Source: Tubulanus polymorphus (taxonomy: Eukaryota > Animalia > Nemertea). Taken from it: a DNA stretch of 64,000 bases. The notes under the pieces were generated by a model. That model had not been told where the DNA came from. It saw nothing but the letters and a program-made list of their open reading frames with translations, and did not search any database. The stretch is from assembly GCF_964204645.1 (NCBI RefSeq), contig NC_134029.1, forward strand, positions 14,502,950 to 14,566,949, given 5' to 3'. The number at the start of each line of letters is the position of its first letter. The stretch's first letter is position 1. Shown in pieces: positions 460-51,281 of the stretch. Made by a program: the position numbers and the translations under genes.

Positions 460-770
460 CTTATCTGATAGTTATAATTACTGCTCCTAATAGATAAACA
501 AAAGTAGTGAGATATCAAATAGAATTCAAATAAAATATATTAAAAAAACAATAACTTCAACTAGCCATTATTTCTATTTTAATTTTTGATATTTTCTTTT
601 ACAATTCTTTTCAAAAGAGAATACTTTATATTTTGAATAGATTCAAATAGAAATTCTTTAAATTCAAATAGCTAGTACCAGTAGTCAATACTAGAATTCT
701 TTAACTTTAACTATCTAGTATCATTTTATAATACTTATAATATTTTTCTTATTAAATTTCTCCAATATAA

Positions 771-1379
771 ATGTCAAAGAAATCGAGTAAGAATAGTATT
801 GATATTGAAAAAACATTAGATGATTTGGGTATTAGTGATAATAAGGATCCAGTTGTTTCTAATTCTATTCAAGTTAATTGTAAAATAGATTATGAATACT
901 ATTTATATTGTAAGCATCATCTAGAACTATTGATTGCCGGTGGAAAAACTAAGGAGTTTTTAAATAGAATCATTACTTTTCAAGAACTAGACTCTATGAA
1001 ACCAGATAAAGTAATAAAATATTTTAAGATTTATGAAGAAGCTAGATTAGCTAGAATAAATGATTCTATTTCAGATGGTATTGTCAAATGTTATTCTAAG
1101 TTATGTAACCGGTTAATACCAATTGATGATGAAAATAAATTATATAGTGATTTGAAAAATGACTATTTAGTTATGACTGAATTACAAAAATGGGTTGGTT
1201 ATGCTTCATTCCAATTAGGATCGGTTATGACATTAATTTCTACTGGTGTCATAACATTTTCGAATATTAAGCCTATGGAATATAAATCAGGTAAGAACGA
1301 AACAGATGACGCTGTACTACAACCAAACAGTGAAACAGAAAATGAATCAGAACAAAAATTAACTAAAATAAATGAGTGA
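771..1379 (+). CDS. Polinton-like element hypothetical protein, 202 aa, hydrophobic segment near C-terminus
   Basis: Intact AT-rich ORF with TAAATG start; mirrored at 5730-6338; diverged paralog at 37886-38470. Confidence 0.8.
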   Translation: MSKKSSKNSIDIEKTLDDLGISDNKDPVVSNSIQVNCKIDYEYYLYCKHHLELLIAGGKTKEFLNRIITFQELDSMKPDKVIKYFKIYEEARLARINDSISDGIVKCYSKLCNRLIPIDDENKLYSDLKNDYLVMTELQKWVGYASFQLGSVMTLISTGVITFSNIKPMEYKSGKNETDDAVLQPNSETENESEQKLTKINE

Positions 1380-1735
1380 TGGCGTTAAGAAAAAGCCTAG
1401 ATCCGAGAAACAAACTAAATGGGCAAGAGAATTAGGTAAAAGATCTTCAGAATTAAAAAAAGCTAAGAAAAAGAAATTAACTGAAATGAATCACAGACTT
1501 TATCTGATATTGATTCAAATAATAATCCATCTTATTCTTCTAATGCTGGAAGTAATTATAAATTATATATTACAATTGGATTAGTAACAGTTATTATATT
1601 ATCCGGTGTAATATATAAATCAAAATTCAAATCTAATGATAAAGATGATTCCAATTAAATAAACCTATTATACCAGAAAATAAATCAAATGATAAAGTCA
1701 TTGAAAATAACCCAAGATTATTATTAATGGATTAA
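1372..1735 (+). pseudogene. Small basic protein with TM segment (frameshifted)
   Basis: KKKPRSEKQ..WARELGKRS N-terminus. The paralog at 37657-37893 shows the original frame (…KLYITIGLIAVII). Confidence 0.65.
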
Positions 1736-1741
1736 AATAAG

Positions 1742-2269
1742 ATGAAAAAAGAACAATATTTAAGAGAGTTATATTATAACCCAGAAAGTGAAGTATCATA
1801 TTCTAACGTTTCAGAATTATGGAATAAAATTAAATCTGATAATGAAAATGGCGCCATACGGCACCCACATGGTGGTATAAAATATAGCGAATTAAAATCA
1901 TGGTTACAAAATCAACCAACATATCAAATTCATAAGAAAATGGATAAAACTTATTTAACAAGAAAAGTTATGGTTTCATATATCGATCAACAATGGCAAG
2001 CAGATTTAATTGACATGAAGAACTTAGAAGAACACAACAAAGGATATTTCTGGATATTAAATGTTATAGATATATTCAGTAGATACGCATGGTCAATTCC
2101 AATCAAAAATAAAACTGGTATAGAAGTAACAAATGCTTTTAAATCAATATTTAAAGAAGCTATTCCAGATAAGATACAATTTGATGAAGGTAAAGAGTTT
2201 TATAACAAACATTTTAAACAAGAGCCCCAAGGGGCACAATGGCCAGCCTGTCAGATTTGCTTTTTATAA
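1742..2269 (+). pseudogene. Polinton rve (DDE) integrase, truncated at ~2217 by an inserted repeat
   Basis: WQADLIDM, VIDIFSRYAW and KIQFDEGKEFYN motifs; the last ~17 codons come from the inserted element. Confidence 0.9.
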
Positions 2270-3305
2270 ATGATGTAATCTGTGGGTTATATTTATCAAT
2301 ATACACTCCCTGCTCAATGTCATTTACATACTACAATCGTGTGTTAACACAGACAGCAGGAGCGAATGTAATATAGAAATACTAAGTTATTGTATTGTTC
2401 AACGCCCCTGGTGGCCATGTACAAAAACCAATGAGCTTGAAACTCACCAAGATCATAGACCATGTCATGAGCTACATCTTTCCAATTGATTGTGGTAGCA
2501 AAATATGCATAGGTACGAATGTAATATAGAAATACTAAGTTATTGTATTGTTCAACGCCCCCTGGTGGCCATAAACAAAAACCAATGAGCTTGAAACTCA
2601 CCTCAATCATAGAACATGTCATGAGCTACAACTTTCCAATTAATTATGGTAGCAAAATATGCTTAAGTATCAAAATGATGTGGCAAAACTTTTTTTCCAC
2701 CTACGAATGAGTACTGATGACCCCAAGATGGCCGCCAATTGCGTCATAATTGCCTGGTCAAAAATACCCTCTCGGATATAAAAGATCCCTTTCCAAAGAA
2801 TACCCATTACAAATTGCAATGAAAAATGGCACACCATTAGAAAGCTACAGGACTCAGAATTCAGGCCAAAATTAAAATGTTTGGGAACAAAAAAGGTCAC
2901 AGGACGGCCATCTTGAGTCCGATCGACCCAATTTTTCTCATGCCGATGGGCCCTTGGGGGATACAAATATATACGAATGATCAAGGTTATTGATAAAAGT
3001 GTCTTCAAAATTTCCCTCGAAAACTTCTAAAATGTGTAAAAAGTGCTGATTTTGGCGAACAACAATGGCTGTCAGTCGGCCATCTTGAATCTGACAGGGC
3101 CAGTTTTTGGCCTGAAGATGTGTCTAGGGTAGATACACGTATAAACCTAATATCAAGACATTACCTTGAAGCGTCTTCAAAACTTTGGAACTCTCACGAA
3201 CTATCTAGATGGTTATCTCTCGACTCAATAGCTTCAAGACCCATCTCAAAACAACTTTGTTCCATGCAGCATACCATTAACTCTCGGAAAGCGAATTGGA
3301 TTTAA
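2217..3305 (-). mobile_element. Non-autonomous Helentron-associated (HINE/Pearl-like) element with ~154-bp internal tandem repeats
   Basis: Homologous to 31843-33074. Terminal hairpin GCCCCTTGGGGC followed by TCTTGTTT, inserted at a T-run. Inner boundary approximate. Confidence 0.65.
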
Positions 3306-3803
3306 CATTTTTTTTGTCTGAATAAAATTTGATTGAATTTGCAATTCGAGCACATGGCTAATTAGCATATCAAGTTCATACACTCGATTTGGGAAAAGCA
3401 ATTTTTTGCGAACCTTGCGCAATTGTCAAGGATGAATTTTCTGTAGAGCAAATGAAAATTCCTCCCAAACACCAAATCAACCGTCTGAACAATTTTGTCA
3501 CAACCAACATTTCGTTTACAGAAATCAGGTGTTCACGTGAACCCGCGGTATCGTCTATTGTTTTACTTCCGGGTTTTATTTTAAGATTTAAAACCGTATT
3601 TCAAGATCGATTTCTATGAAATCTTTAGTTGATTTGGTGTTTGGGAGGAATTTTCATTTGCTCTACAGAAAATTCATCCTTGACAATTGCGCAAGGTTCG
3701 CAAAAAATTGCTTTTCCCAAATCGAGTGTATGAACTTGATATGCTAATTAGCCATGTGCTCGAATTGCAAATTCAATCAAATTTTATTCAGACAAAAAAA
3801 ATG

Positions 3804-4892
3804 TTAAATCCAATTCGCTTTCCGAGAGTTAATGGTATGCTGCATGGAACAAAGTTGTTTTGAGATGGGTCTTGAAGCTATTGAGTCGAGAGATAACCAT
3901 CCAGATAGTTCGTGAGAGTTCCAAAGTTTTGAAGACGCTTCAAGGTAATGTCTTGATATTAGGTTTATACGTGTATCTACCCTAGACACATCTTCAGGCC
4001 AAAAACTGGCCCTGTCAGATTAAAGATGGCCGACTGACAGCCATTGTTGTTCGCCAAAATCAGCACTTTTTACACATTTTAGAAGTTTTCGAGGGAAATT
4101 TTGAAGACACTTTTATCAATAACCTTGATCATTCGTATATATTTGTATCCCCCAAGGGCCCATCGGCATGAGAAAAATTGGGTCGATCGGACTCAAGATG
4201 GCCGTCCTGTGACCTTTTTTGTTCCCAAACATTTTAATTTTGGCCTGAATTCTGAGTCCTGTAGCTTTCTAATGGTGTGCCATTTTTCATTGCAATTTGA
4301 AATGGGTATTCTTTGGAAAGGGATCTTTTATGTCCGAGAGGGTATTTTTGACCAGGCAATTATGACGCAATTGGCGGCCATCTTGGGGTCATCAGTACTC
4401 ATTCGTAGGTGGAAAAAAAGTTTTGTCACATCATTTTGATACTTAAGCATATTTTGCTACCATAATTAATTGGAAAGTTGTAGCTCATGACATGTTCTAT
4501 GATTGAGGTGAGTTTCAAGCTCATTGGTTTTTGTTTATGGCCACCAGGGGGCGTTGAACAATACAATAACTTAGTATTTCTATATTACATTCGTACCTAT
4601 GCATATTTTGCTACCACAATCAATTGGAAAGATGTAGCTCATGACATGGTCTATGATCTTGGTGAGTTTCAAGCTCATTGGTTTTTGTACATGGCCACCA
4701 GGGGCGTTGAACAATACAATAACTTAGTATTTCTATATAACATTCGCTCCTGCTGTCTGTGTTAACACACGATTGTAGTATGTAAATGACATTGAGCAGG
4801 GAGTGTATATTGATAAATATAACCCACAGATCACATCATTTATAAAAAGCAAATCTGACAGGCTGGCCATTGTGCCCCTTGGGGCTCTTGTT
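3804..4892 (+). mobile_element. Mirror copy of HINE/Pearl-like element
   Basis: Reverse complement of 2217-3305. Confidence 0.65.
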
Positions 4893-5367
4893 TAAAATGT
4901 TTGTTATAAAACTCTTTACCTTCATCAAATTGTATCTTATCTGGAATAGCTTCTTTAAATATTGATTTAAAAGCATTTGTTACTTCTATACCAGTTTTAT
5001 TTTTGATTGGAATTGACCATGCGTATCTACTGAATATATCTATAACATTTAATATCAAGAAATATCCTTTGTTGTGTTCTTCTAACTTCTTCATGTCAAT
5101 TAAATCTGCTTGCCATTGTTGATCGATATATGAAACCATAACTTTTCTTGTTAAATAAGTTTTATCCATTTTCTTATGAATTTGATATGTTGGTTGAATT
5201 TGTAACCATGATTTTAATTCGCTATATTTTATACCACCATGTGGGTGCCGTATGGCGCCATTTTCATTATCAGATTTAATTTTATTCCATAATTCTGAAA
5301 CGTTAGAATATGATACTTCACTTTCTGGGTTATAATATAACTCTCTTAAATATTGTTCTTTTTTCAT
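4840..5367 (-). pseudogene. Polinton rve integrase, truncated (mirror copy)
   Basis: Near-identical to 1742-2269 (3 aa differences). Confidence 0.9.
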
Positions 5368-5373
5368 CTTATT

Positions 5374-5737
5374 TTAATCCATTAATAATAATCTTGGGTT
5401 ATTTTCAATGACTTTATCATTTGATTTATTTTCTGGTATAGTAGGTTTATTTAATTGGAATCATCTTTATCATTAGATTTGAATTTTGATTTATATATTA
5501 CACCGGATAATATAATAACTGTTACTAATCCAATTGTAATATATAATTTATAATTACTTCCAGCATTAGAAGAATAAGATGGATTATTATTTGAATCAAT
5601 ATCAGATAAAGTCTGTGATTCATTTCAGTTAATTTCTTTTTCTTAGCTTTTTTTAATTCTGAAGATCTTTTACCTAATTCTCTTGCCCATTTAGTTTGTT
5701 TCTCGGATCTAGGCTTTTTCTTAACGCCATCACTCAT
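5374..5737 (-). pseudogene. Small basic TM protein (mirror copy, frameshifted)
   Basis: Mirror of 1372-1735. Confidence 0.65.
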
Positions 5738-6338
5738 TTATTTTAGTTAATTTTTGTTCTGATTCATTTTCTGTTTCACTGTTTGGTTGTAGTACAGCGT
5801 CATCTGTTTCGTTCTTACCTGATTTATATTCCATAGGCTTAATATTCGAAAATGTTATGACACCAGTAGAAATTAATGTCATAACCGATCCTAATTGGAA
5901 TGAAGCATAACCAACCCATTTTTGTAATTCAGTCATAACTAAATAGTCATTTTTCAAATCACTATATAATTTATTTTCATCATCAATTGGTATTAACCGG
6001 TTACATAACTTAGAATAACATTTGACAATACCATCTGAAATAGAATCATTTATTCTAGCTAATCTAGCTTCTTCATAAATCTTAAAATATTTTATTACTT
6101 TATCTGGTTTCATAGAGTCTAGTTCTTGAAAAGTAATGATTCTATTTAAAAACTCCTTAGTTTTTCCACCGGCAATCAATAGTTCTAGATGATGCTTACA
6201 ATATAAATAGTATTCATAATCTATATTACAATTAACTTGAATAGAATTAGAAACAACTGGATCCTTATTATCACTAATACCCAAATCATCTAATGTTTTT
6301 TCAATATCAATACTATTCTTACTCGATTTCTTTGACAT
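5730..6338 (-). CDS. Polinton-like hypothetical protein 202 aa (mirror copy)
   Basis: One aa difference from 771-1379. Confidence 0.8.
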   Translation of the reverse strand: MSKKSSKNSIDIEKTLDDLGISDNKDPVVSNSIQVNCNIDYEYYLYCKHHLELLIAGGKTKEFLNRIITFQELDSMKPDKVIKYFKIYEEARLARINDSISDGIVKCYSKLCNRLIPIDDENKLYSDLKNDYLVMTELQKWVGYASFQLGSVMTLISTGVITFSNIKPMEYKSGKNETDDAVLQPNSETENESEQKLTKINE

Positions 6339-6472
6339 TTATATTGGATAAATTTAATAAGAAAAATATTATAAGTATTATAAAATGATACTAGATAGTT
6401 AAAGTTAAAGAATTCTAGTATTGACTACTGGTACTAGCTATTTGAATTTAAAGAATTTCTATTTGAATCTAT

Positions 6473-6757
6473 TCAAAATATAAAGTATCTAAAATTAAGA
6501 TCTGTTTGATATCTTTCTCTCATATATTCTGCCATATAATAATTATAATGTTCTATATTATCTTCTCGGTATTGTTTGGTATATAGTTTAAAACAAGTTT
6601 TACAACAATATTGAAAACCATCTTTGCTAATCTTACCCTTACTGAATTCTGTTATAGCTAATTTATCTAATTCACATTTAGAACACTTCTTGTAGTATAT
6701 ATTTATGACGCCAGTGTTATTTGTAATATTGATAGTTTGTGGTTGTTCTGGTTCCAT
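6473..6757 (-). pseudogene. N-terminal Zn-ribbon half of HNH nuclease gene, truncated by ~570-bp deletion
   Basis: CSKC...SKDGFQYCCKTC followed by MAEYMRERYQTDLNFR, identical to the start of ORF 4-459. Confidence 0.8.
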
Positions 6758-7015
6758 TTATTATACATATTTTTTTACTAAATTGATTTTAGAAGTTCAA
6801 TGATTTATATCATGTATTATTTCAATCACACTTTACTAACACTTTTAATGTTTAAAAATCTAACTCATACAAATATGAATATTGAAATAATGTTATAAAT
6901 ATATCTATATATCTATTCTATAAAAGCTTACACTTTACTCACACTTTTATATTGAATAATCTATCAATTTATATGTTATTCATATATATTTTATTCATGT
7001 ATATAAATATTTTAA

Positions 7016-7288
7016 GAGTAATAGGGATAATGGGCTTTCATATCAAAGGTTGAAAGGGCTAGTGAGTAAAAAAATGAAAAATATGAAAATAATAATAATT
7101 TCTATTTGAATTAGGAGTGAAACTCATATAAAATGAAAAATAAATTCGAGTGTGCGAGAATTATTTTTCATTTTATATGAGTTTCGCTACTAATTCAAAT
7201 AGAAATTGTTATTATTTTCATATTTTTCATTTTTTATGAGCTCGAACTTTCGACCTTTGGTATGAAAGCCCATTATCCCTATTACTCA
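7016..7288. repeat. ~270-bp AT-rich imperfect palindrome at the element terminus/junction
   Basis: GAGTAATAGGGATAATGGGCTTTCATA ... TATGAAAGCCCATTATCCCTATTACTC with centre AATTC-GAGTGTGCGA-GAATT; related sequence at 40590-40660 and 43781-43875. Confidence 0.9.
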
Positions 7289-7573
7289 TATAAAACTAAA
7301 ACTCATGAAGCTAAAAAGTTAAAAGGAATTACCAAAAGTATAGTAGAAAAAAAACATTCATTTCGAAGATTACATCAATTGTATATTCAATGAAGAAGTT
7401 AGAAAACATAAGATGAAATGTTTAAGATCTGAAGATCATGAAATGTTTATTGAAGAGATAGAGAAGATAAGTTTAAATCCTTTCGATGATAAAAGATATA
7501 TTATAGATGATGGAATTCATACAGTTGCTTATGGTTGCAACTTAGATGAATACTTAAAATTTAAAAGAGAATA
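7284..7573 (+). pseudogene. polB: Protein-primed family B DNA polymerase (pPolB) C-terminal fragment
   Basis: Manual translation with one frameshift in an A-run: YSYKTK..KKLKGITKSIV..IHFEDYINCIF...KISLNPFDDKRYIIDDGIHTVAYG, the characteristic Polinton pPolB C-terminus. Not in the ORF track. Confidence 0.85.
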
Positions 7574-9271
7574 AACAAAAGAGAATGAGATTATGAAAAG
7601 AATTATTACATGTTAATTCAATTTTGATAAAAAATATAGCTGCCAAGCAGCGATGACGGGTTTTCTGCAAAGCCATTCAGAAAGATGGGAATTGTAGTAA
7701 ATTGAAATATCGATACATAGAATAAAATGCATTGACAGATTCGAACCTAATATGCTGTGTAAACGTCAAATATGATTCAGCTTTGAAACCGAACATACGC
7801 GGACGTACAATCACAAATATTAATTTATTTGACCAGGCATTTATTTTGGCATTCAAACATCATGATACTGTATTATCACCATGCTTAAAAATGAATCTGT
7901 CCTATTAAGAACTCATCTTAAGCACCTGCTGAGTCAATAGATTGAGTGAATTTACAGATAAGAACTTACTATGATTTAGAATAGATTTAAGAAGTTAATG
8001 TTTTTATTGAAATATTTGAATAGATACATATATTGTAGTGTAGATTCAATCAATAAATTATGAATTGATCTGGTCTGGGTTTCCGGCTGATGTTGATTTT
8101 GGCTTTTATGGATTACAAATTCTGTAGTGATCAACAACTGATACCTGCAACATGTGTGCAAATCAAACCTATTCCACTAGTTGCGTGTGTTTCCTAATAA
8201 ACGGGAGAGTCGCTCTTGATCCGAGTTATTAGAAAAATAATGTTCATTTAGTTATAGAAATTCATTGCCTTTTTGGAAATTCTGTAATAATATTTGTTCT
8301 GTCCTAATTTTTATTACTGTATGAACCAATGATATGCTTTGTAAATATGATGTAATAAAATAAATTTGAATTTGAATTAAATTTGAACATGAGAATCAAG
8401 CATAACTTGTGTTTTTTCAACTTGTCTTTTGTTAACAGTTCCAGAGTTTCAATTACAATCAAATCCAAATTGGCTAAAAAGTACATATGACTAAATGAAA
8501 TGAACCGTTAGTTACTGCAAACCTATTCCAGTGTTATGTCGATCGTGTTGAATCACTTTCCTTGAGTTGAAAGAATCAGATCTTCTATGGTGCAACATCG
8601 GTCGAAGAGAGATATCTTGGTGTTGACTGTCCTTGGCCATCTAACTTCATGCGTTTGACATTGGAATCAGCATCATGCCCATTTGAACTGCAAAATATTC
8701 ATACAACATGAAAACCTACAGTACATGTATACAGTAATCAAACTTTCACCGATGTTGGATATTTGAATGAACGTTGGGCTTATTTCAGTATTCTAATGCA
8801 GGAAATAATAAGCCCAATAAATAGGCCCTATTCCCATTGGAACAATTGTATAATGCGTACAGCAGCACTTATCAGTCAAGTATGGAGAAATCGGTATACC
8901 AAACGTACGAACAGCAAAATGTATAGGCCTACAATGATTTCTGGTATACAAGCCGTGACCACATGAACGTTTTGGTTTGACTATTAATGTCAGCAGGTCA
9001 GAGAAGGCCTGGCCAAATTTAATCACATGGCTCAAATCAATTAGCCTTTCTGCGTGTGAATACTTCACTGTATTGTTTTAAAAATGGGCCTATCGAGTGA
9101 ATTAGTACAAAGACTGAATTAGACTTTAGGCTAGTCCTGACCAAATCCTATCCATGTTATAATTGCACCAGTTATAGTAACATCACTGAAGGGCCGACGA
9201 GAGGGAAAAAGTTGTGTTTGTAGTACATAGGCATGGTAGAATTGTCGTACTAACCTAATACTTAAAATGCT

Positions 9272-26567: not shown

Positions 26568-26591
26568 ATGCGTAATTTTTTTGCTAAATAA

Positions 26592-29980: not shown

Positions 29981-31842
<1,862 letters not shown>

Positions 31843-33074
31843 TTTAGCCCATTTTCGTCCGTCCGTCCGTCCGTCCGTAGACGGAATCCAGTTATTTTGG
31901 GAAGTTTTGAAGACGCTTCAATGTAATGTCTTGATATGTGGGTTACACATGTATCAGCCCTAGAAATATCTTCAGCCCAAAAATTGGCCCTGTCAGAATC
32001 AGAATGGCCGACTGGCAGCCATTGTTGTTCGCCAAAATCAATTCTTTACACATTTTTGAACTTTTTGAGGGAAATTTTGAAGACGCTTTGATCAATTACC
32101 TTGATCTGTCGGATGTATGTGAATCCCCATAGGGCCCATCAGCAAAACAAAAATTGGGTCGATCGGGCTCAAGATGACCGTCCTATGACCTTTTTTAGTG
32201 CCCAAAAATGTCAATTTTGTCCCGAATTCTGAGTCCTGTAGCTCCCTACTGATTTGCCATTTCTCATTGCAATTTGTGATGGGTATTCTTTGAAAAGGGA
32301 TGTTTAATACGTGAGACAGGTATTTTTCATCAGCCAATTATGACGCAATTGGCGGCCATCTTGGTGTCATCAGTACTCATTCGTAGGTGGGAAAAAGTTT
32401 TTCCACATTATATTGATAGATACCTAAGCGTATTTTGTCACCACAATCAATTAGAATCTTGTAGCTGATAAGGTGTTCTATGATTGTGGTGAGTTTCAAG
32501 GTCATTGGTTTTTGTATATGGCCACCAGGGGGCGTTGAATAATACAATATCTTAGTATTTCAATATTATATTCGTAACAATGCATATTTTGTAACCACAA
32601 TCATTTGCAAAGTTGTAGCTCATGACATCATCTATGATTGTGGCAAGTTTTAAGGCCATTAGTTATTCTATATGGTCACCAGGGGACGTTGAATAGTAGA
32701 ATAACTTAGTATTTCCTTATTATATTGGTACCTAGGCATATTTTGTTACCATGATCAATTACAAAGTTATAGTTCGTGACATGTTCTTTGATTATGGTGA
32801 GTTTCAAGGTCATTGTGTTTTGAATATGGTCACCAGGGGGCGTTGAATAGTAGAATAACTTAGTATTTCCATATTTAATTGGTAACGAGTCATATTTTGT
32901 TATCACAATCAATTACAAAATCGTAGCTGCTGACATGTTCTATGATTGTGGTGAGTTTCAAGGTCATTGGTTTTTGTATATGGTCACCAGGGGGCGTTGA
33001 ATATTGAAATTGTTAGATTGTTGAGCATTTGGAACCACATCCCAAGTGGGCATGGTGTCCCTGGACCCCTAGTT
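31843..33074 (+). mobile_element. HINE/Pearl-like non-autonomous Helentron with (GTCC)n, ~154-bp tandem array and 3' hairpin+CTAGT
   Basis: TTTTTAGCCC start, (CGTC)n at 31856-31877, four core repeats at 32430-33000, GTCCCTGGAC..CTAGTT end. Confidence 0.75.
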
Positions 33075-33084: not shown

Positions 33085-33518
33085 ATATGATCAGAAAGAT
33101 CTCATCATATCATTACTCATAATCCTTCTAATATTAATCCCGATGAAACTTTATTTGTTAGAATTCCTCGATTAACACAAAATACTTTTTATGTTCCAAA
33201 TAGTATTTATTGATCAGCTGATTCATTTATTTATCATTTTTCTCATTAGATGATTATAATTTATTTATGCATTATAAAGATTTATGGTTAACAAAAGAAA
33301 ATAGAAATAATATGATATTTCAAGGCATCCGATCAGATAACCAAAATAAATCAGATCAGAAGCTAATAATGCAATAATAGCTAATGCTACAGATAATTTG
33401 ATAAAAAAGATTTATGGAAGCAAATATTAGAAGTTTAAATTTCAAAAGGCACATTTATATTATATCTGACGCGCAATTAAATACTGTTAATTCTCAATTG
33501 AATGGTGTTATGTATTAG
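33085..33518 (+). pseudogene. Major capsid protein (double jelly roll) remnant with large internal deletions
   Basis: Manual translation: HIITHNPSNINPDETLFVRIPRL..YVPNSI; DDYNLFMHYKDLWL..RNNMIFQGI; C-terminal YIISDAQLN..VMY*. These motifs match my recollection of this Polinton group's MCP. Confidence 0.65.
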
Positions 33519-33550: not shown

Positions 33551-34622
33551 ATGGAAGGAGGAATATATGAAATACAAAGTCCAAGTGAAATGATATCAGA
33601 TATATATTATGTAACACCTTATGATGAATATAGTAAGTATTTTGGAGAATACTTTAACCAATTCAAATATCGAATAAGTAAAATAGAAAAGAATATTGAA
33701 CCTAAAATAGAAAATAATGTTTAACCTAAAATAGAAAATAATGTTGAACCTAAAATAGATGATAATATTGAACCTAAAATAGAAGATAATATTGAAAAAA
33801 AAATAGATGATAATGTTATACCTTCTACATCGAACAATGATACGATTGAACCTGATATCAAAACCAAAAAGACAAATGAAAAATATTGTGACGTATGTAA
33901 GAAATTTTAAATCATATAAAATTGGGCATCACATCAGAAATCAAAGAAACATGTAGAAAAAGAAAAGAATAATAATATCATAGATGATATTAATACAATT
34001 GAAACTAATGATACCATAGATAATATAACAGATAATGTTGATACAATCGAAACTAATGATAATGAAACAATTGATGATTCTAAAAAAACATTATAATGTT
34101 TGTAATTTAGATATTTCTAAAAGTAATTTTTCTAAGCATAAAAAATCTCAGGCGCATATAGAAAATGAAAGGGGGTTAGAAGAACATGAAAAGAAATTAG
34201 AAGAAATAGAAAGAAATAAAACGTGTCAATATTGTAATAAGGAAATTGAACCTGTTGATGAAAATACTCATTATAAATCAAAATAACATCTAATTAATGT
34301 TTATAAAAATGTGAGTATGATACCATTGATAAATAACCCAATGAAATACATCAAATATTTTGATCCTAAAACTAAACAATATTATATATTCTAAAAGTTG
34401 TTATTTGATAAATTATAAGCTTATGCAGAAAATAATCTTGGATATCATTTTGATTTCTATATTGATGAATACTTTGAAAAATTAAGAGAAGAAGGTAAGA
34501 TACATACTAATTATCATAATCTGATGGTTCAACTAAAATTAATAAATATACCTACAGATATCAGTGAATTAGATATAAACAAAGATGACTTTATAAATTT
34601 ATTAGAAACAAAATTAGAATAA
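33551..34622 (+). pseudogene. Multi zinc-finger (U1/C2H2-like) protein with IEPKIENN repeats
   Basis: YCDVCK..HQKSKKH, CNLDIS..HKKSQAH and CQYCNK..HYKSK; stops and frameshifts present. Confidence 0.65.
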
Positions 34623-35713: not shown

Positions 35714-36649
35714 TTAAGGAAATTGTAGTCTCAGAAGTAATTTTGAACCTTTATTACTTTTTAATTTATTCATATATTCATCATGTAAGTCAGTAGGTAT
35801 AATTTGATTTTCTTCCAATGATTGTTGAATAGACTTCTATCTTTGTTATAAAATAAAACTAAAAACGTTATATTCTCCCTAAAGTCTTTAACAATTGAAT
35901 AATATTTTTGATTTAAAACTGATACAGAGCACGTCAACATTCGTAATTAAAGTATATTATGTAATACATATCTATATTGTAATTCTTTTAAAACCAACTT
36001 TATCCTTATCATTTCAATCCCGACCTTATACATTTCACTCGGCGCTGGTCATTTGAACTTTGTTCTACTGACGTCTGGCCATTGTCTAGTGGAGCAATAT
36101 AAGTTCATGTCATTCCATTCCTCCCTCTCTTTCTCTTTCGCTCTCTTTCTCTTTCGCTCTCTTTCTCTTTCGCTCTCGTTCTGGAACGCCTAATAAAGTC
36201 AACGTATAATTTATACTCTTGCGTTCAACATTTCATAACATCTGAGCTAGTTCCAGGTATCAAAACCCATGTTGTTCTTCCAAAATGTCTCCCAGAGAAA
36301 GCTAAAAAGCATAGTTCACTTTCTCTAACTTTTGAATCATGTAAATTAGCACAATCATCTATAATGAATAATGTATTTGAACCTTTATAAATATCAATTG
36401 CTATTTTAATACAATTATCTTAATTTTCTTTGACTTTTTAGGATCTAATATAATAAACTTTTTTATCTTAACTATATCTCTATTATATGTTTTATTCATT
36501 TCATAAGTGGGGCAGAATAATATTATATTATCAAAATGATTTTTATAAATAGTTTCTAACAAATCTAATATGAAATGCGTTTTACCACTGTTGATTACAC
36601 CAGTAACTAACATATTATGCGGTTCAAATATAAATAAATCTTTATTCAT
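35714..36649 (-). pseudogene. A32/FtsK-like DNA packaging ATPase, frameshifted and interrupted (~35880-36260)
   Basis: Walker A VTGVINSGKT, Walker B LFIIDDCA, LAFSGRH motif. Confidence 0.88.
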
Positions 36650-37655
36650 TTATTCTTTTAATTTTACTAGATAAAATCCATTCATTAAATTTGTCATCAT
36701 ACCCTTTATATTTCACCAGAGAATACTTTTTTCCTTAAAGATTTTTCTTTTCAATACTTTTTCTATTTTGTATTCTATTTCATCTGGATTTGGTGATAAT
36801 TCTTGTTCATAATAATAACCTAATATTTCTTCATCTTTTAGATCTTCTAATTTATAAAAAAAAAGGTTTAGTTAATATTATCTTTTTAATCTTAAATATT
36901 TCTTCGGTAAAATTTGGAGTATAAACTTTATAAAATGTTTTTCGATATTTAGATATTCTTACATGTTGTCCTATTTTAAATTTTGGTTCTCCAAAATCAT
37001 GTCTAACAAATGCTTCATATAAATTATTCCAAACTATTTCTGAATTATCTTCTTTTCTAGCTTGTATAGGTTTCATATGTATAGAACTATGTTTAGAATT
37101 ATTATAACCTTTCACTAAATCATCTAACACATCGATATATTCATATGTTTCATTAGCAGTAAAATATTTCCACATTCTAGTTTTCAATGTTTTATTGAAT
37201 CTTTCTATAATAGATGCTTTTTTATCTGAATGCGTTGAAAAATATTCTATACTGTTATCAGATAATAATCTTTTAAAATGTTTATTATAGAATTCCTTAC
37301 CTTCATCGAATTGTATCTTTCCTGGAATAGCTTCTTTAAATATTGATTTAAAGGCATTAGTAACTTCTAAACCAGTTATATTTTTGATTGGAATTGACCA
37401 TGCATATCTACTGAATATATCTATAAAATTCAATATCCAGAAATATCCTTTGTTATATTCTTCTAAGTTCTTCATGTCAATCAAATCTGCTTGCCATTGT
37501 TGATCAATATATGAAACCATTACTTTCCTTGTTAAATAATTTTTATCCAATTTCTTATGGATTTGATATGTTGGTTGATTTTGTAACCATAATCTTAGTT
37601 CACTATATTTTATATTTTCTTTATCAGATTTAATTTTATCCCATAATTCTGAAAC
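36642..37655 (-). pseudogene. Polinton rve integrase with C-terminal chromodomain (5' deleted, frameshift ~36860)
   Basis: DDE core WQADL/FDEGKEF/IIERFNKTLK; after the shift YKIEKVL..LVKYKGYDDKFNEWI chromodomain. Confidence 0.92.
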
Positions 37656-37656
37656 A

Positions 37657-37893
37657 CTAGAATATAATAACTGCGATTAACCCAATTGTAATATATAATT
37701 TATTATTACTTCCAGCATGAGAAGAATTAGATGGATTATCATTCGAATCAATAGCAGATAATTTCTGTGATTCATTTATATCAGTTAATTTCTTTTTCTT
37801 AGCTCTTTTTAATTCTGAAGATCTTTTACCCAATTCCCTAGCCCATTTAATTTGTTTTTCGGATCTAGGTTTCTTCTTAATATCATCACTCAT
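37657..37893 (-). pseudogene. Small basic TM protein, 3' truncated by a deletion fusing it to the integrase
   Basis: Paralog of 1372-1735; the segment equivalent to ~1600-1807 is missing. Confidence 0.7.
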
Positions 37894-38470
37894 TTATTTT
37901 ATTTTATTTTTGTTCTGATTCAATATCTTCTGATTTACTTTTATCTTTATATTCTATAGGTTTGATATTAGAAAATGTTATTACGCCAGTAGAAATTAAT
38001 GTCATTATTCCTCCTAAAATGATGCGTATCCAACCCATTTCTGTAGTTCTGTCATAACTAAATTATCATTCTTTAAATCACTATATAATTTATTTTCATC
38101 ATCAATTGGTATTATCCGGTTACATAATTTAGAGTAACATTTTACTATTCCATCACTGATAAGAGTCAGTTATTTTAGCTAATCTAGCTTCTTGATATAT
38201 GTTGAAATGTTTGATTACTTTATCTGGTTTCATATTATCTAATTCTTGAAAAGTTATAATTTTAGTGAGAAATTCCTTACACTTGCCGCTAGCAATTAAT
38301 AGTTCTATTTGGGGTTTACAATATAGATAGTAGTCGTAATCAATATTACTATCAATTTTATTATCAATATTATTTTCAATTTTGGTTGGAATATCCTTAT
38401 TATCAGTAATGCACAAATCTTCAATTGTTTTTTCAATATCAATACTATTTTTACTCGATTTCTTTGACAT
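37886..38470 (-). pseudogene. Paralog of the 202-aa protein, frameshifted
   Basis: MSKKSSKNSIDIEKT start; homology continues past 38153. Confidence 0.8.
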
Positions 38471-38771: not shown

Positions 38772-40411
38772 TCATTTCGGATCCTCGATAATAAATCCTC
38801 AACTGAAAATCAATTTAACGAAAACACCGGGTGGAATTACTATTTCATAAACACATATATTTATTATGCAAATTGTAGCGATCGAAGATAGAACAATGGA
38901 GAACAATAGAAAAGCGGTCCTAGAAGACCGCTTTTGCTCGGTGCGCATGCGTCAATTATATAATTTATTCTGTAAACTACAACATTCAAACATTGAACTT
39001 TAACCAATCAATACAGAACAGCCGTCACCATCAACAACGACCGAACGACTTATGTACGCGCAAATGCAATTCCGGCATATATAATACAACATGATGAAAC
39101 AGCTTCAGTCTCTTGTGATGAAATATCCATAATTTCGGATTCCACATCCATCCATCTTCACCTTCTTGATTCAATGGTCTTCATTTTGTTATCTAAAAGA
39201 TATCTAGCGTAGAAAATAATTAACTTGAAGTTGAACCAGGTTTATGTTAAAATTTAACACGAGTCAAAACATAGCTTGTGAGTTTGGGAAGTGGCTTGTA
39301 TTTCACTTTATTACAGCTCGGAGTATTCCAAAGTCACAGAGCTGTTGTTAAATATATATCACAATACAAATAACCCCTTTCGGATGTCTTATACCCACGG
39401 CGTTGTTGTGAAAATGAATTACTGTACTTAAATATGTTTAAAGGTTTCCCTACTTCATAATAACTGCAAAAAACGGTACTTACATTTAGATTTAGAACTG
39501 TAAACTGTGTTTCGAGAGAGAATATCCTATGCGTTCTGTATATGTGAATGTTGATTTCTAACTGCCAACGCGGCGCACGTTCGACCATACTGATTATTTC
39601 TGTACGTTTGCCTGGATGGTAACAGGCGTTCTTTATGATGAAGTTAATTAATTCCTTTACAATTGAAAACAATCAAGCGACAGATGTTTTTGTAATCAAC
39701 TATATACATACAGGGCTCAAATAGAGTTGCCGGTTTTCTAACCACTGATTAAAACCTCAGAATGCGGTTGATTCTGCGAGCTACTATTCCATAATTCAAC
39801 AAATGTCTTTGCTTTATCTAATTGCTCCAAATATAACTGTAAATCTAGTTTGTTAGATTTAATTATATTTTCTTTCTTTTCAAGAGGCCTTAAATTTCTC
39901 GAGTTCCAGATTAGCTTCTGATTGTGTTCATCATTCATGTTGAATTTCGATACTGGTAAAACATGGTCTATTTGAAAGTATTCGCCATAGGCCTAATTAT
40001 TTATATTCATTTTAACGTCGATTTGATATACAATCCATGAGTTTTAGAATTCATCTAAACAACCCAACAAATTAGATAGTGTAACTGAATGCGCTTCTTT
40101 GTTGAATAATTGTGTTAATCTAGACCGTAAACATTGTTTCATTTTAAAATTAAGATCTGTTTTATATCTTTCTCTCATATATTCTGTCATATAATCATTA
40201 TAATGTTCTCTATTATCTGCCCGATATTGCTTAGTATATAGTTTAATACAAGTTTTGCAGCAATATTGAAAACCATCTTTGCTAATTTTACGCTGACTAA
40301 ATTCTGTTATAGCTAATTTATCTAATTCACATTTAGAACATTTCTTGTAGTATATATTTATATACAGTGTTATTTTGTAATATTGATAGTTTGTGATTGT
40401 TCTGGCTCCAT
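38772..40411 (-). pseudogene. Zn-ribbon + HNH nuclease gene, interrupted by ~1-kb insertion (~38810-39785)
   Basis: Homology to 6473-6757 plus 4-459; the insertion carries a Helitron-like hairpin AAAAGCGGTC..GACCGCTTTT at ~38910. Confidence 0.8.
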
Positions 40412-40458: not shown

Positions 40459-40580
<122 letters not shown>

Positions 40581-42400: not shown

Positions 42401-44184
42401 GCGGCTATAACCCAAGTTATTATAAAAATGGAGCTTCTGTCGCTTTGTATGTGGATGCTGTTCTCTCAAGTTTCACGTAATCGACAACGTGACCCGAAAA
42501 TAAGGTAGTGGCTAAGAACGGTGCTGCCATCTGTTAAGGAACCGCCTTTTCATGATCGTGCATCTACACGGATGAAAAGCCGGCTTTTTAAAAAACGGCT
42601 TCGTTGGGGTCTACTCGCGAGTAGGCCTAAACGGAGCCGCCTTTTTAAAAGGCGGCTCCGATAAAGGCTGCTTTTGGAAATTTAGTCCTCGTGTAGATTG
42701 GAAATGAAGGATTTTTCCTCTCGTGTAGATGGACCTTTAGTTACACTTACATACCCCGACTTTGACATTTGAGGTATGTTCTGCATAAGATCGAACCGGG
42801 ATGACGGTCTATCAATACGCATTAAAATGTCTGACCACTTAGGCTTTGGCTATCACCACATACGCATTAGTTTACTGTTTCTGATGTTTTGACTGTAAAC
42901 TCAGTCTCATTTCTGCGATAGCTGGAAAGCTGCCTCCTTTTTGACTTTAGGATAGCAAGCTCAGTCTATCTGCACGCAATGGTGACTGGAAAGTAACCTC
43001 TTGACGTCCGTCTCCTTAAAAACTAGCAAAAAACTAATCGTGACAATGTAAATAAAACCTGATCAAGACTGTATAGGCCTATACGTAAGTGTGGTTGGAA
43101 GATTGTTTGAATGAACCGGAACCGAATTTCCCAATTATGTACTTCGATTTGAATAAAAATTCTGTTAACTCGACCGCCGATCACACAACTATATCTATAC
43201 TTCGATTTCCGATTTCAAAATCAAACCCCCTGTTTCGTTTCCGGCAGGTGTGGTTGGTCTGTAAGGGACACTCAATCAAAAAATCAAACGAAATTTACCA
43301 TCCAAATAAAAAAAACTGGGACAATCCCTATTTTAAGATATAAAAAAAAGTTGTTCCCCAAACCCCTTGACCTCACGAATCGCTGGAGTCGTTACCAGCC
43401 GACCAGAATCAGGTCGGGATAAATCACGGCGCTTGTTACAAACCACATTGGACTTCTGTACGAATTCCAGTTAAATGGACCAATCAGCGAACGTCTAACC
43501 GAACAAGGAAGTATTTCGCACGTCGACACATGACGTCATGCGCAAAGTGCCAGTTCAGCCAAGCGAGTTCGGGGAGCGATACCGGACCCCTGGCAAGCGA
43601 GGATGCCTTGTAGCTGATTTTGGGAAACGCCTTGTTGGATAATGGTGGTTAAACGAGGGGACTCCTCAAAAACGTGTGAAATCGCTGTTTTGACACTAAA
43701 ACGAGGGGCACACCTCGCAAATTAGTGACATTAAAAAGAGGGTTTGTCAACGTGGATTTTTCCAATTCTGGATCCAATTCTCGAAGGGTCGAGCTCATAA
43801 AAAATGAAAAAATAAATTCTCGCACACTCGAATTTATTTGTTAACTTATACTTATTCCCTATTATTCTTAAAATATTCATATATATGAATAACATATAAA
43901 TGAATTTCATATATTTTCAAATCATTTATATGTTAATCATAAAAGTGTAAGTGAAGTGTGAGTAATAATACATATTTTAACAGATTTCGAATGAAAATAT
44001 AAGTAAAATAAATGGGTAATTAAAAGAATATAAAATTGTGAGTAAAGTGTGAGTGAAATAACTCATATTTTAGAAAAGTAACGAGTAATTAACGAGTTGA
44101 TTAAAATTAGATTTTTAAACATAAAATTGTGAGTAAAGTGTGATTGTAATAATTCATATTTTAACATTGAATATTTATATTTGA

Positions 44185-44850
44185 ATGAGTTTTAATGAAA
44201 GTTCTGTTATAAAAATGAAGACAGAAGAAGAACCTAAATTCAAAATCGAAATAAAAGAAACCAATAAATTATTTTCACAGTTTAACATTAAAAATTATAT
44301 GTCAGTAACAAATGTAGTGTCCGCAAGGTATTATAAAATTGATAACATTACTATGATTAATCAAATATCATCAAATGAAACATGTCTAATTACTGAACTA
44401 GTAGATACTTTTGATAATGGCGTTAAAAATCCTAAAATATTTAATACAGTTTTTAATTTTAAAGGAACTTTAGATGAAAACATAATAAATATTCTTAAAA
44501 CTCCTTTCAATGAAAGAAAAAGTGATATAATACTTTCTAAAGATTACGATGATTTGATTAATTTAAGAATTGAAAAAAGACAATTATATTATTTCAATTT
44601 TGATAATAAACAAATTATCTATAATGAAAATTCATCAAATATTGGAATTCAATGTGAATTAGATAATGAAAAATCATCCAAAGATGTTGCAGTTCAATGT
44701 AATTCAGATGATGAATTTAGAATATTCAATCCTAATGAAAAAGTGTATTGTTATTGCGGCGGCAAATATTTAAGATCACATAAATCAAAGCATTATCAAA
44801 CAGTTAAACATATCAATTATGAAAAGAATAATAAATATATATTGAAATAA
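44185..44850 (+). CDS. Hypothetical protein with C-terminal zinc finger (CYCGGKY..HKSKHYQTVKH)
   Basis: Intact 221-aa AT-rich ORF; the CxCG..Y....H..T.KH finger is common in Polintons/NCLDV. Confidence 0.7.
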   Translation: MSFNESSVIKMKTEEEPKFKIEIKETNKLFSQFNIKNYMSVTNVVSARYYKIDNITMINQISSNETCLITELVDTFDNGVKNPKIFNTVFNFKGTLDENIINILKTPFNERKSDIILSKDYDDLINLRIEKRQLYYFNFDNKQIIYNENSSNIGIQCELDNEKSSKDVAVQCNSDDEFRIFNPNEKVYCYCGGKYLRSHKSKHYQTVKHINYEKNNKYILK

Positions 44851-45016
44851 GATTAAGCTGTATGTTTCAAATATATAGTAGTTAAAGCATTGAGAAATTA
44901 GTTAATGAATAACTGTTAGGTAGTAAGTTTAATTGTTATTTGATTTGAAACATATAAAAGTTAAATATTTCTAAAATATTAAATATTTATCAATTTAATA
45001 ATTTTTTCTTAAATAA

Positions 45017-45515
45017 ATGTATGATTTCAACATACAAACCGGAAGTAGTGATTTGAAACATTATTTAGTAGCAGGAGGATTAATTTTGGCTGCGCTTTTC
45101 TGTTATTATGAGAATATTAGTAAGGATTTTTGTGAATGAAAATATAAAATTGAGCAAGAAATTAAAGAAGTTAAATAGAACAATCAAAGAAAAAATAACA
45201 GTAAAAATTTGATTTAAAAGAATTAGAGGATTAAAACAGCACCTTTTAATTTAATTTATTCTATATATTTTAACTATAAAAATGAGTGAAAATAAGGTAT
45301 TAGAAATATTACATCTGATATATAAAAATCAACAGAATATCAAATCAATATTATGATTTCAGGTTTATTTTCTTTCTTAATTTACTCATTAAAACAGTTG
45401 TTAGAATTCTATGATTGCTGTAAAATTAGATACACTGAATTAATAGAAAATATAAATCATCTATCAGATAGATTGAATAATATTAAGTGTTGTGAAATAT
45501 GCAATAAAAGATATA
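45017..45515 (+). pseudogene. Two small degenerate element ORFs (starts at 45017 and 45282)
   Basis: TAAATG/AAAATG starts, hydrophobic segments, internal stops; cut by the insertion at 45516. Confidence 0.4.
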
Positions 45516-47965: not shown

Positions 47966-48554
47966 AGAAATAAAAAATCATTAAGGAATCACATGTATAT
48001 TCATGAGCTTAACAATAAACTGTATAATTCAAATTAAGATATATAATATTTATATTAATAAATTAAATTAATCGAAGAGCACGGTTGAAAATTAGAAGAG
48101 ATGATAAATTTTTAATTAGATTTATAAAAAGTGATAGCACAAATAAAATTAAAATAAAGGTATATGATGAAAGTCAACATGCATTTATGGCAAAAAACCA
48201 TTAGCTAAATTGCTAGGAATTGCACCAGATGCTGTTACAGGAAACGTAGATGGTAATTCAAATTTAATGACTTTTACACACATTTATATTTATTGCAATT
48301 TAATCGATCCTACAAAAACATTCGAAGCAACTAAAGATATAACTTGTAATTCTGGTTTATTAAACATTTTACCATGGAAGAATGTTAAAAAATTTGGAAC
48401 GCAAATAAATAATAATTTAACAGAATGTGATTTCAAACCATGCATTCCTCAATTTAATAATTTTAGATTAGAAATTAGAAATTATAATGGATATTTAATT
48501 GATTTGAATAACTTTCCTGTGATATATGAATTAGTTATAAGATGTAGAGAGTAA
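47966..48554 (+). pseudogene. Penton / minor capsid protein, copy B (5' lost)
   Basis: The C-terminal half is highly similar to 25700-25992; the middle region is divergent. Confidence 0.75.
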
Positions 48555-48571
48555 TTTTTTTCACTATATAA

Positions 48572-48913
48572 ATGAATATAACTGTTGGACCGAGTATATG
48601 TTTTGGGTTTGATTTTAAACATGGTAAAGAAATGAGAATTAAACTAAATGATGTAATTACTGATATTAAAAGTAAATCATTTAATAATGTATCAATGATT
48701 AATAAAGAAAATTATAATATAGAAAAAGTAATTGATTTAATTATAACACCTTTAGAATATTGTGAATTAAATCAAGATGGAATTATCGATGATATTAAAG
48801 ATATATTACCTAAAATATATGATAATCATAAAAGTAGTAATGAAATAAATGTTGAAATAATTATAACTAAGTTAACTAAATATTTTGAAGATAGTAATTT
48901 TTTTGATAAATAA
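48572..48913 (+). CDS. Hypothetical 113-aa element protein
   Basis: Intact ORF with TAAATG start; paralog at 26007. Confidence 0.75.
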   Translation: MNITVGPSICFGFDFKHGKEMRIKLNDVITDIKSKSFNNVSMINKENYNIEKVIDLIITPLEYCELNQDGIIDDIKDILPKIYDNHKSSNEINVEIIITKLTKYFEDSNFFDK

Positions 48914-49135
48914 ATGAGTGATAATAAGTGGATAATAATTGGATTATATAATGGAGCATTATTATCAGTGGGAACTGTTGGTTATTCAATGGTATTAAAA
49001 AAAGTATTTAAAATGGGAAGTGTTAATGTTGATAGATTTGATATAAATGATATCTTAAAATCAACGTTAGCAGTAACTTTATCTAATTTAACTATTGATT
49101 ATTTGGAAAAACAAAAATATATTCCTCCTATATAA
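48914..49135 (+). CDS. Small hydrophobic element protein, 73 aa
   Basis: Paralog of 26346-26567. Confidence 0.8.
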   Translation: MSDNKWIIIGLYNGALLSVGTVGYSMVLKKVFKMGSVNVDRFDINDILKSTLAVTLSNLTIDYLEKQKYIPPI

Positions 49136-49158
49136 ATGCATATTTTTTTGCTAAATAA

Positions 49159-49531
49159 ATGGCATCTGCAATTATAACTATTATAGGATCGGCAATTGTT
49201 AACGCTTTAGCATTTACTGGTGGTGGTTATTTATTTAAGCATATTGATAAAAATGGTTGCAATTGGTTACAATTAGTTCTGTAATAACATTTCTAGCAAT
49301 ATTCTCACCATTAACACCTTTAGCTATATCAATTGGCGTGCTAGGATTATCATCAAGTGTTTGAACTGGTATAAGTTCAAAATTAAATATAAAAAGTAAT
49401 AAAGAAAAAATTAAAACATATATAAAAGAAATAAATAAATTAAAAAATACACTAAATTATATCATAAGTTTAAATGGTAATATAAAAATTGAAGAACAGG
49501 ATAAATTATTAAAAGAATTAATAAATTATTA
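49159..49531 (+). pseudogene. Deletion fusion of the MASAII.. gene N-terminus with the 3' half of the next gene
   Basis: Matches 26592-26688, then jumps to sequence homologous to 28355-28560. Confidence 0.6.
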
Positions 49532-49548
49532 ATTTTTTTATTATATAA

Positions 49549-50888
49549 ATGGGGTTTCCAAAAGCTTTCCAATATAATAAATCAATTAAATATAATATTC
49601 CTGCAATAGATTTTAATAAAAATATTACATATAAAAATTTGGTTTTAAATTCATTCACTAATTTAGATATTTATGCTACTGAAAGTATTAATTTTAATGT
49701 AAAGATGGAAAATATATTCAATGTTTACGTAATTAATTTTGAAAATTTAAATGAGGCAAAACAATGGTTATTAAAATCCAATATGAAATATTGGCAGAAC
49801 CAATTAAATTTTGCAGTTTATTGTGCAACAACAGGGTGTGGTATAAGTTGGAATGATCATTTAAATGAACCAAGTTTACCATTGATGTTATCACTTTTTA
49901 GATTTCATACATATTTTCAAATAAAATTAATATCAGATGAATTAGAATGTCCTTTACCAGGTTCAAAATACTTTAATGAACTAAATAATAATATTAATTT
50001 TTCTAAGTTTTATAAAATATGTAATGAATTTAATATTTATTCAAATAATGATTTTAGATCAGAAATTGGAACAATGGGTGGATTAGGAATATTATATACT
50101 AAAGAATTTGGAAAAATAATGACAAATACAGATATAAGAACACTAAATTGGAATGAATTACCAAAATATTATAATAATATACAACAACAAAATAATAATG
50201 GTTGGATTAATTTCATTTTAGAAAATAGTGAAGGTTTTACTAAAGCTGGAATACAAAGAATAAATCAATCAATTAGAACTTATTTGATATGTATTTTAGG
50301 TACGCAAGTTGAAACAAGATCACCAATAGTTGGAAATGATGCGCAGAAACAATTCAAAGTATTATTTGAAGATTCCATTCATAATGATAAAAATAGATCG
50401 ATTCCAGAAAATATAGTTAGGTACCAAAATTATTTAGAGAAATCACATATTAGATTAAATTATTGTATAGGCCCTAATCTATTAATTATTTCTAATGATT
50501 TAGTATTAAAGATGGGAAATATAATTGGCTCTAATAATCTAATTAAAACTGCAACCATAAATAATTCATTTGGATTAAATGATATAAATAAAAAGATTAT
50601 TACTGCTCCAAAATTAATGGAAGGTGAAAAAAATAAAAAACATATTCAATCAACAGAAACTAAAACTAAGAATATTAAATTAAATAATGATTCTAAAATA
50701 AAAGATTACAATACTATAGAAAATGGTGCCGTACGGCACCCACACGGTGATATAAAAACTGATAATATTCAACATGATATAATAAAAACTAATAATGATA
50801 ATAAATCCCATGAAAATGCTAAATTAGCTATAACTTGTAGGGCCTATAGGAATTGTAATTGGAGGAATATTATATTTTAGATTTTAAT
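49549..50888 (+). CDS. Conserved ~445-aa element protein (WQNQLNFAVYCATTGCG), C-terminal TM lost by a 7-bp insertion at ~50840
   Basis: 443-aa ORF; comparison with 29224-29964. Confidence 0.8.
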
Positions 50889-50902
50889 TCTTTATTATAT
50901 AA

Positions 50903-51281
50903 ATGGAAGAAGATATTCCAATGGATACTTCTGGTGACCCCTCTGGTATAAGCGATGAACCACAACAAGAATTTAATTAAACTAATTGATAATGATGATG
51001 GAGCAGCATATAATACTAATTCAGGTGAAGATGATTCTAGTGGGCCTATATTATATGATTATGATGAATTTAAATGTGATACTGAAACGCGCAAAAAATT
51101 TGAAGAATATATGACAGCTCACGAAAGGGGAGTTATTAAACCCAAAACATTTAGAAAAGATTTAATTGATAGATTAGAAAAAACAGAAAACCCTGAATTG
51201 AAAGAAGATTTATATTTAATGAAAAGTAGAGTAATAGATACAATTGTTAACGAATTATTACCAAAAGATGTAATAGATAAG
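50903..51281 (+). pseudogene. N-terminus of the large acidic protein, truncated at 51281
   Basis: MEEDIPMD..PGISDEP-like start; MKSRVIDTIVNELLPKDVIDKV shared with copy A. Confidence 0.75.

Follow-up and report, generated by a model that had tools for sequence, protein, structure and literature searches.

Mavericks, also known as Polintons (Polintoviricetes), have been described as "adintoviruses" (PMC8502044) and, in vertebrates, as Mavericks (PMC8097293), and they combine an rve integrase and chromodomain with an A32-type packaging ATPase, a double-jelly-roll capsid protein and a probable penton. Their gene set is described as restricted to animals (PMC8502044), and their particles have, according to the account of the vertebrate elements, not been observed to date (PMC8097293). 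The stretch of Tubulanus polymorphus DNA analysed here (the window: 64,000 nucleotides of contig NC_134029.1, positions 14,502,950 to 14,566,949) holds fragments of an element that shares this gene set, the intronless genes and the occurrence as multi-copy, decayed insertions, and several of its genes (g04, g05, g07, g08 and g12 in the list below) occur in many Maverick-type contigs. It differs from the described Mavericks in having a motif of the poxvirus late type at nearly all of its gene starts. It also has a long terminal palindrome, its link to a polymerase runs only through one relative (L010), and no maturation protease was matched in the scanned open reading frames (ORFs) of the window or of its near-intact relative L004, both of which are incomplete.

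The late promoters of vaccinia virus place TAAAT followed by G over the start codon, with a conserved T at the tenth base upstream among other Ts, and the intermediate promoters combine TAAA with an AT-rich block further upstream (PMC11980589). The element shares with vaccinia and mpox promoters, and with those of entomopoxviruses (PMC3061580) and salmon gill poxvirus (PMC4542343), the TAAAT plus G over the start codon, the T at -10 within a run of Ts and the A-rich variants. It departs from them in that its putative promoters lie on a small integrating element in whose scanned ORFs no RNA polymerase was found, and in the extra, near-invariant A at -1 and -15 in the clade closest to the window (clade A).

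The borrowing of promoters by small DNA viruses has precedents. Sputnik and mavirus use the late promoter of their helper, and these virophages and the Polinton-like virus (PLV) Gezel-14T/PgVV are, like the element, small double-jelly-roll DNA viruses (10.1101/2022.07.28.501842); in mavirus, rve integrase and PolB genes occur as well (PMC11296320). The helpers in these cases infect protists and are of the mimivirus type, with other motifs, whereas here the gene set is of Maverick type and the host probably an animal, as the LINE and Harbinger content of the window and the animal restriction of the gene set (PMC8502044) suggest. A further group for comparison is formed by AHEV_PLV1/2, CBEV_PLV1 and Ca_PLV1, which have been proposed as hyperparasites of poxviruses, carry an A32 ATPase and include one integrated in a beetle genome; they have, by their description, which is the basis of this comparison, an adenovirus-type protease and either an undetectable integrase or a tyrosine recombinase, and the main text of that paper does not contain the words "promoter", "motif" or "TAAAT" (PMC11296320). 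A likeness to these viruses, which an earlier note on this DNA had cited as a precedent, is not borne out, as an rve integrase is present here and the protease was not found in the ORFs scanned. As to the note's label "Polinton-like virus", the rve integrase rules out a PLV in the narrow sense, a group described as mostly lacking both pPolB and rve (PMC11071308).

The motif sites considered in the window are the 19 listed in the earlier note, each checked for TAAATG at its ATG, and all 19 carry it. The sites are real, but the gene count was inflated: self-BLAST and tblastn with L004 reduce them to 13 distinct genes in repeated copies, and the list lacked two mirrored copies, at 6338 and 5737 on the minus strand. 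Where starts are defined by homology, TAAATG is found in 21/25, and of the four starts without it three have the variant form TAAA(A)ATG. Counted by gene, 13/15 have TAAATG in at least one copy, against 45/581 (7.7%) of the other first ATGs after a stop within these AT-rich blocks (p 6e-11 in a binomial test that raised the background 1.5-fold), a strong over-representation at gene starts; both strands of the window hold 110 copies of the motif, 89 of them away from gene starts. The element blocks are AT-rich as claimed (24.8% GC, against 37.1% in the rest of the window), and the T-tracts and A-tracts upstream were found as first described. The other mobile elements, offered as an internal control, indeed lack the motif at five starts (LINE ORF1, the first ATG of LINE ORF2, the Harbinger transposase and two ORFs of an element at 61-64 kb); this control is small, and the Polinton identity given to the last of these elements is unsupported by homology.

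More complete relatives make the structure of the motif clearer. The 443-aa ORF at 49549 (g07) has 77 homologues, and an alignment of this query with 63 of them led to 80 metagenome loci, the best 80 of 379 related stretches in a scan that covered 29/64 parts. One near-intact block, L004 (11.5 kb), has a g07 that is 77% identical to that of the window, together with penton-like and small membrane genes, g08, a capsid gene, an integrase with chromodomain (one frameshift), the ATPase, a deoxynucleoside kinase (dNK) and a zinc-finger ORF that is truncated where the contig stops. All of its starts carry TAAATG (15/15, leaving out an internal ATG behind the integrase frameshift), against 22/258 background ATGs. 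The T at -10, which was tested only after the published late-promoter rule was known, is present at 14/15 of these starts and at 6/22 decoy TAAATG sites (p 7e-5), and A occupies both -1 and -15 in 15/15. The four closest loci give T at -10 in 25/26 starts against 20/53 decoys, with orthologues counted, and the distant loci L010, L013 and L065 in 7/7 against 2/7. Start contexts could be scored in 68/80 loci, and TAAATG lies at 43/47 starts in 14 of them and at 7/226 in the other 54. The genes with A-rich upstream variants are, judged by eye, shared between the window and L004 (penton, ATPase, g13 and g15), and these variants recall the intermediate promoter class. The dNK gene (10340-10981) and a SLATT-like gene with two transmembrane (TM) segments (2541-2975) of L004 both start with the motif.

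The motif with its fixed spacing is conserved across non-homologous genes and restricted to some Maverick lineages. Since a spacing of about one helical turn is common to unrelated genes, it points to a DNA-binding element. Tight gene packing would also suit a device that acts on the RNA, such as reinitiation at coupled stops and starts, protection of the ATG by a stop in frame or a poly(A) signal (AATAAA) that overlaps the start; the TAA of the motif does end the preceding gene at g03-g04 in two copies of the window and, in L004, at integrase-ATPase, and AATAAA lies within 13/26 closest-clade starts. Stop-start coupling is seen, however, in 1/12 tandem pairs of L004, a divergent pair 72 bp apart has the motif on both genes, AATAAA is missing from half of the clade A starts and from 22/26 clade B starts (a second group of positive loci, described below), and a fixed T ten bases upstream is predicted by none of these devices. 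Nor does a by-product of AT-richness fit well, as ten positive loci span 31–44% GC, and 12 other loci with GC <=0.44 give 3/54 TAAATG starts. We hold explanations of this kind, whether by RNA-level signals or by composition, to be very improbable.

An unlikely, though more credible, explanation is that host RNA polymerase II uses the motif as a nuclear promoter, guided by a TBP-like factor of the element or a host-specific initiator, in which case the likeness to poxviruses would be convergent or inherited. Integrated copies are nuclear, L004 is incomplete, and TBP-like genes have been described in related elements (PMC8502044). The Pfam scan, which covered the ORFs and read-through frames of the window and the ORFs of L004, gave no match to RNA polymerase, TBP or TFIIB, all copies being incomplete. 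A TATA box sits about 24 bp before the start site (PMC7163114), whereas TATAAA occurs in just 13/26 closest-clade starts and abuts the ATG. Transcription from an upstream start would, moreover, leave U at -3 in nearly all mRNAs; in the other Mavericks the -3 position is a purine at 75% of starts and T at 17%. Late initiators of the African swine fever virus type (TATA) were also considered and do not fit the motif (PMC7163114).

In a quick tree of g07 (63 loci and the window, omitting loci without a 250-aa g07 ORF), the window groups with L001-L004 with support 100, and seven other TAAATG-positive loci form a second clade (clade B), also with support 100. Some genes of L005, L006, L019, L069 and L079 start at TAAA(A)nATG, and L077 and L018 have TATA-rich start contexts; such starts may represent different dialects of the promoter, or no more than common AAAATG contexts. 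The looser TAAA(A)ATG forms in the neighbouring loci L005, L006 and L079, the absence of the motif from most other Maverick clades and the decay of every window copy would agree with an ancestral helper-dependent promoter that is now a relic or a translation signal in a helper-free lineage. That account seems distinctly improbable, because the motif and its upstream positions are near-invariant in L004 and are kept across loci whose proteins are just 35-56% identical, which together imply continuing selection.

The yeast virus-like plasmids pGKL1 and pGKL2 are not known to have a capsid or an integrase. They are AT-rich, and they have a poxvirus-like TAAAN initiator, poly(A) leaders made by slippage and a polymerase of their own (PMC6211774); such plasmids descend from polintons (PMC11071308). 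By analogy, a pox-related polymerase might come from a cytoplasmic helper element or from parts of the element that lie outside the available sequence. This is improbable in our judgement: no polymerase subunit appears in the element ORFs scanned, the longest contig among the matches listed for L004-type proteins measures 16.9 kb and so exceeds L004 by about 5 kb, and pGKL pairs its initiator with an early-type upstream element, whereas the motif here follows the late-type T at -10 (PMC6211774).

The explanation that we prefer, with a probability of roughly 0.6, is that the genes of this lineage are transcribed cytoplasmically, by the poxvirus-type polymerase of a pox-like helper virus, and that the lineage would thus act as an integrating virophage. 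The T-tract or A-tract and TAAATG would together form a post-replicative promoter of poxvirus type, which the RNA polymerase of the helper would recognise; a co-infecting virus of poxvirus type is the simplest source of that enzyme. No polymerase, TBP or TFIIB was matched in the scanned element ORFs, all of them from incomplete copies. In vaccinia, slippage of the polymerase at this initiator gives the mRNA a poly(A) leader (PMC6211774). If the same holds here, transcription would start within the three As, slippage would add a 5' poly(A) leader, and the resulting mRNA would have A at -3, so that the unfavourable U is removed. On the model of virophages, free copies would be expressed, replicated and packaged in the factory of the helper, and the rve integrase would return copies to the host genome. 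The copies in the window are broken and could not by themselves go through such a cycle, and no direct support was seen for the inducible antiviral provirophage suggested in the earlier note.

The poxvirus-type reading of the motif gains from its bipartite form, its vaccinia late spacing, its retention in intact relatives and its absence from most other Mavericks, but several observations weigh against the explanation as a whole. Among the decayed copies of the window itself, T at -10 shows only weak enrichment (8/13 vs 31/89, p 0.06), and in clade B the T peak lies at -11 (24/26) more than at -10 (16/26 vs 10/26, p 0.08), with TTAAATG in place of ATAAATG. The 14 positive loci were picked by the trait itself, and a single origin for them is neither supported nor rejected by an approximately unbiased (AU) test of monophyly (p-AU 0.44 for the capsid and 0.44 for the ATPase), although the split between positive and negative loci, trait-based as it is, follows the g07 tree. 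Short AT-rich promoters can arise by convergence, the truncation of L004 leaves room for an element-encoded factor past its ends, and the dependence on a pox-like helper is read from promoter sequence alone, no gene of a helper virus having been found. No exchange of genes with poxviruses was shown either; the dNK of L004 has four close relatives at E 1e-20, none pointing to a donor. Two other marks of cytoplasmic transcription are of little help: internal AATAAA is depleted neither in the TAAATG clades (observed/expected 1.0) nor in controls and does not discriminate, and the lower count of TTTTTNT in clade A (4, where 10 were expected) comes from a single comparison out of 45.

The motif is genuine, strong and specific to certain lineages of an element of known kind, and a helper-virus mechanism is a well-motivated hypothesis for it. 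Full-text searches, which took in few subscription papers and did not extend to supplements (e.g., PMC11296320), returned no description of poxvirus-type promoters in Mavericks or PLVs, so that, as far as they show, this would be the first case in which promoters tie an integrating Maverick to poxviruses. A promoter matched to a helper would explain the silence of Mavericks in uninfected animals and predict when to look for particles. If the explanation is correct, such a promoter would also flag the hosts of undiscovered pox-like viruses.

Read depth indicates how many copies there are and offers one hint of activity. In raw DNA reads of the same organism the structural genes are mostly covered to a depth of 110-1030, the lowest flank to about 22, a difference that implies tens of element copies. 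When the summed contig depth of run X1 is compared with raw reads X5, the median is 180-fold on 16 element bins and 5.6-fold on 12 non-element bins (window 43933-45487 and 47976-51396, two mixed bins left out), figures in which summed depth is not copy number, X1 was chosen as the best-matching run, and AT content, selection or library bias may play a part; the same comparison for run X2 gives 1.4 and 0.6. The relative excess of about 30-fold in X1 may reflect extrachromosomal amplification in one sample. A wider and quite tentative idea, which we consider possible but doubtful, is that an ancient branch of animal Mavericks consists of endogenous virophages of undiscovered pox-like viruses: their promoters would name the helper, their insertions would map where such viruses infect invertebrates, and intact copies would wake on infection and curb the helper; the excess in X1 may be such an awakening.

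The element belongs to the Maverick/Polinton lineage, because it has an rve integrase, an A32 ATPase and a double-jelly-roll capsid. PF00665 is matched twice in the window, with a chromodomain alongside the integrase in L004, and PF04665 both in the window and in L004. The 415-aa protein of L004 is modelled as a double jelly roll (predicted local distance difference test, pLDDT, 87), with Foldseek matches at E 1e-15 to iridovirus and PBCV-1 capsids; virophage capsids rank below these. The penton candidate has a weak DUF5901 match (E 0.0028) in its L001 orthologue, and polymerase sequence occurs in the relatives L018, L045 and L076 and in the TAAATG-type locus L010, but not within the truncated L004. 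The model of g07 (pLDDT 82) found no match in PDB, BFVD or a wide VIA search (best Z 4.7), and for that reason g07 was rejected as a capsid. The name PZ may apply to g07. Sequence searches of PDB gave no match, Atlas searches gave leads all below 0.9, and scans of IMG/VR with g07 and capsid queries gave no relative; a scan of GTDB gave a single 2.3-kb contig in a bacterial bin, probably a contaminant.

The earlier note had taken the region as one element, and this does not hold. The window contains fragments of several broken Maverick/Polinton copies, three to four partial ones at about 78-92% identity in self-comparison, plus a 99.5% inverted duplication. Their genes are disrupted by stops, frameshifts and insertions, and most of the capsid gene has been lost. 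The features identified are the following:

1..459, plus strand: 3' part of an HNH-like nuclease gene, copy 1.
771..1379, plus: g12, a conserved Maverick gene, TAAATG start.
1372..1584, plus: g13, TAAATG start overlapping the end of g12.
1742..2269, plus: rve integrase fragment (PF00665 at 1736-2266), interrupted by an inserted repeat.
3628..6488, minus: inverted duplicate, 99.5% identical to 621-3481, with integrase fragment, g13 (5737) and g12 (6338).
6473..6757, minus: 5' part of the HNH-like gene, TAAATG with an A-tract upstream.
6717..7287, no strand: terminal-repeat-like region that matches 43794-44254 in inverted orientation (64% identity over 483 nt), with a near-perfect palindrome of about 270 nt at its end (7016-7287).
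7290..7574, plus: C-terminal fragment of a protein-primed DNA polymerase without a start, adjoining the terminus; only a candidate member of this element family.
24864..25217, plus: g01, TAAAATG variant start.
25232..26053, plus: probable penton (minor capsid) gene with an early stop, TAAATG with an A-tract.
26007..26966, plus: g03 (TAAAAATG variant start), g04 (26346, TAAATG) and g05 (26592, TAAATG), with stops in g03 and g05.
27033..28560, plus: g06, SLATT-like two-TM gene, TAAATG start, split by an insertion.
28577..29964, plus: g07, conserved Maverick gene of about 440 aa, frameshifted, TAAATG with a T-tract.
29981..31866, plus: g08, acidic start and hydrophobic C-terminal part, broken, TAAATG start.
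33091..33515, plus: remnants of the double-jelly-roll major capsid gene, mostly deleted, in pieces 46-84% identical to the L004 capsid.
33551..34622, plus: g15, zinc-finger-like, broken, TAAATG with an A-tract.
35717..36649, minus: A32-type packaging ATPase (PF04665 at 36404-36649), broken and interrupted, TAAATG start.
36650..37676, minus: rve integrase, broken (PF00665 at 36855-37676, E 2.6e-8).
37657..38470, minus: g12 (38470) and g13 (37893), both TAAATG.
39738..40411, minus: HNH-like gene, TAAAATG variant start at 40411, internal stops.
43774..44254, no strand: opposite terminal-repeat-like region, with the same palindrome centre.
44185..44850, plus: 221-aa ORF, first ATG without TAAATG.
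45017..45139, plus: small hydrophobic ORF, TAAATG with a T-tract.
48065..51404, plus: third copy of the structural block, with part of the penton, g03 (48572), g04 (48914), g05 (49159), part of g06, g07 (49549, 443 aa) and the start of g08 (50903).

In the third copy of the structural block TAAATG is present at 5/5 starts (g03, g04, g05, g07 and g08). A link between g15 and the N-terminus of the polymerase was sought in the sequences compared and none was established. The HNH label is provisional; an ORF of L079 similar to the HNH-like gene of the window has a weak HNH_3 match (E 0.054).

The inverted duplication (621-3481 and 3628-6488; 2.86 kb at 99.5% identity, with a 146-nt spacer) is either a real rearrangement of the fold-back kind or an assembly artefact. 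The termini in the window are recognised by the 64% inverted match between the ends of different copies, and the AGTAGT end motif is absent from them. The palindrome at the element end (7016-7287) folds as DNA at -110 kcal/mol (z -24); its slightly asymmetric centre recurs at about 43774-43897, at the opposite end of another copy, and its inner arm stands alone at 40578-40665. The palindrome may represent either a terminus in hairpin form or a junction of two ends, and in other copies joints of the fold-back and skip kinds are seen in reads near 43811.

Other repeats lie in and around the copies. A fragment at 35261-35548, inside the element, presumably resembles the GIY-YIG end of a Penelope-type element. 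An insertion at 45815-46957 with 129-nt inverted ends, similar to a miniature inverted-repeat transposable element, is polymorphic, as X5 reads and one X1 contig skip it. The long interspersed nuclear element (LINE) at 15452-19674 is nearly whole, with endonuclease and reverse transcriptase, and a Harbinger-like pair that includes a Myb/SANT gene lies at 53874-55932. The second element, at 60936-64000, starts with AGTAGT and contains tandem repeats of 14 nt as well as an ORF rich in cysteine, with a weak match to PC4, and on these features is likely another Polinton end.

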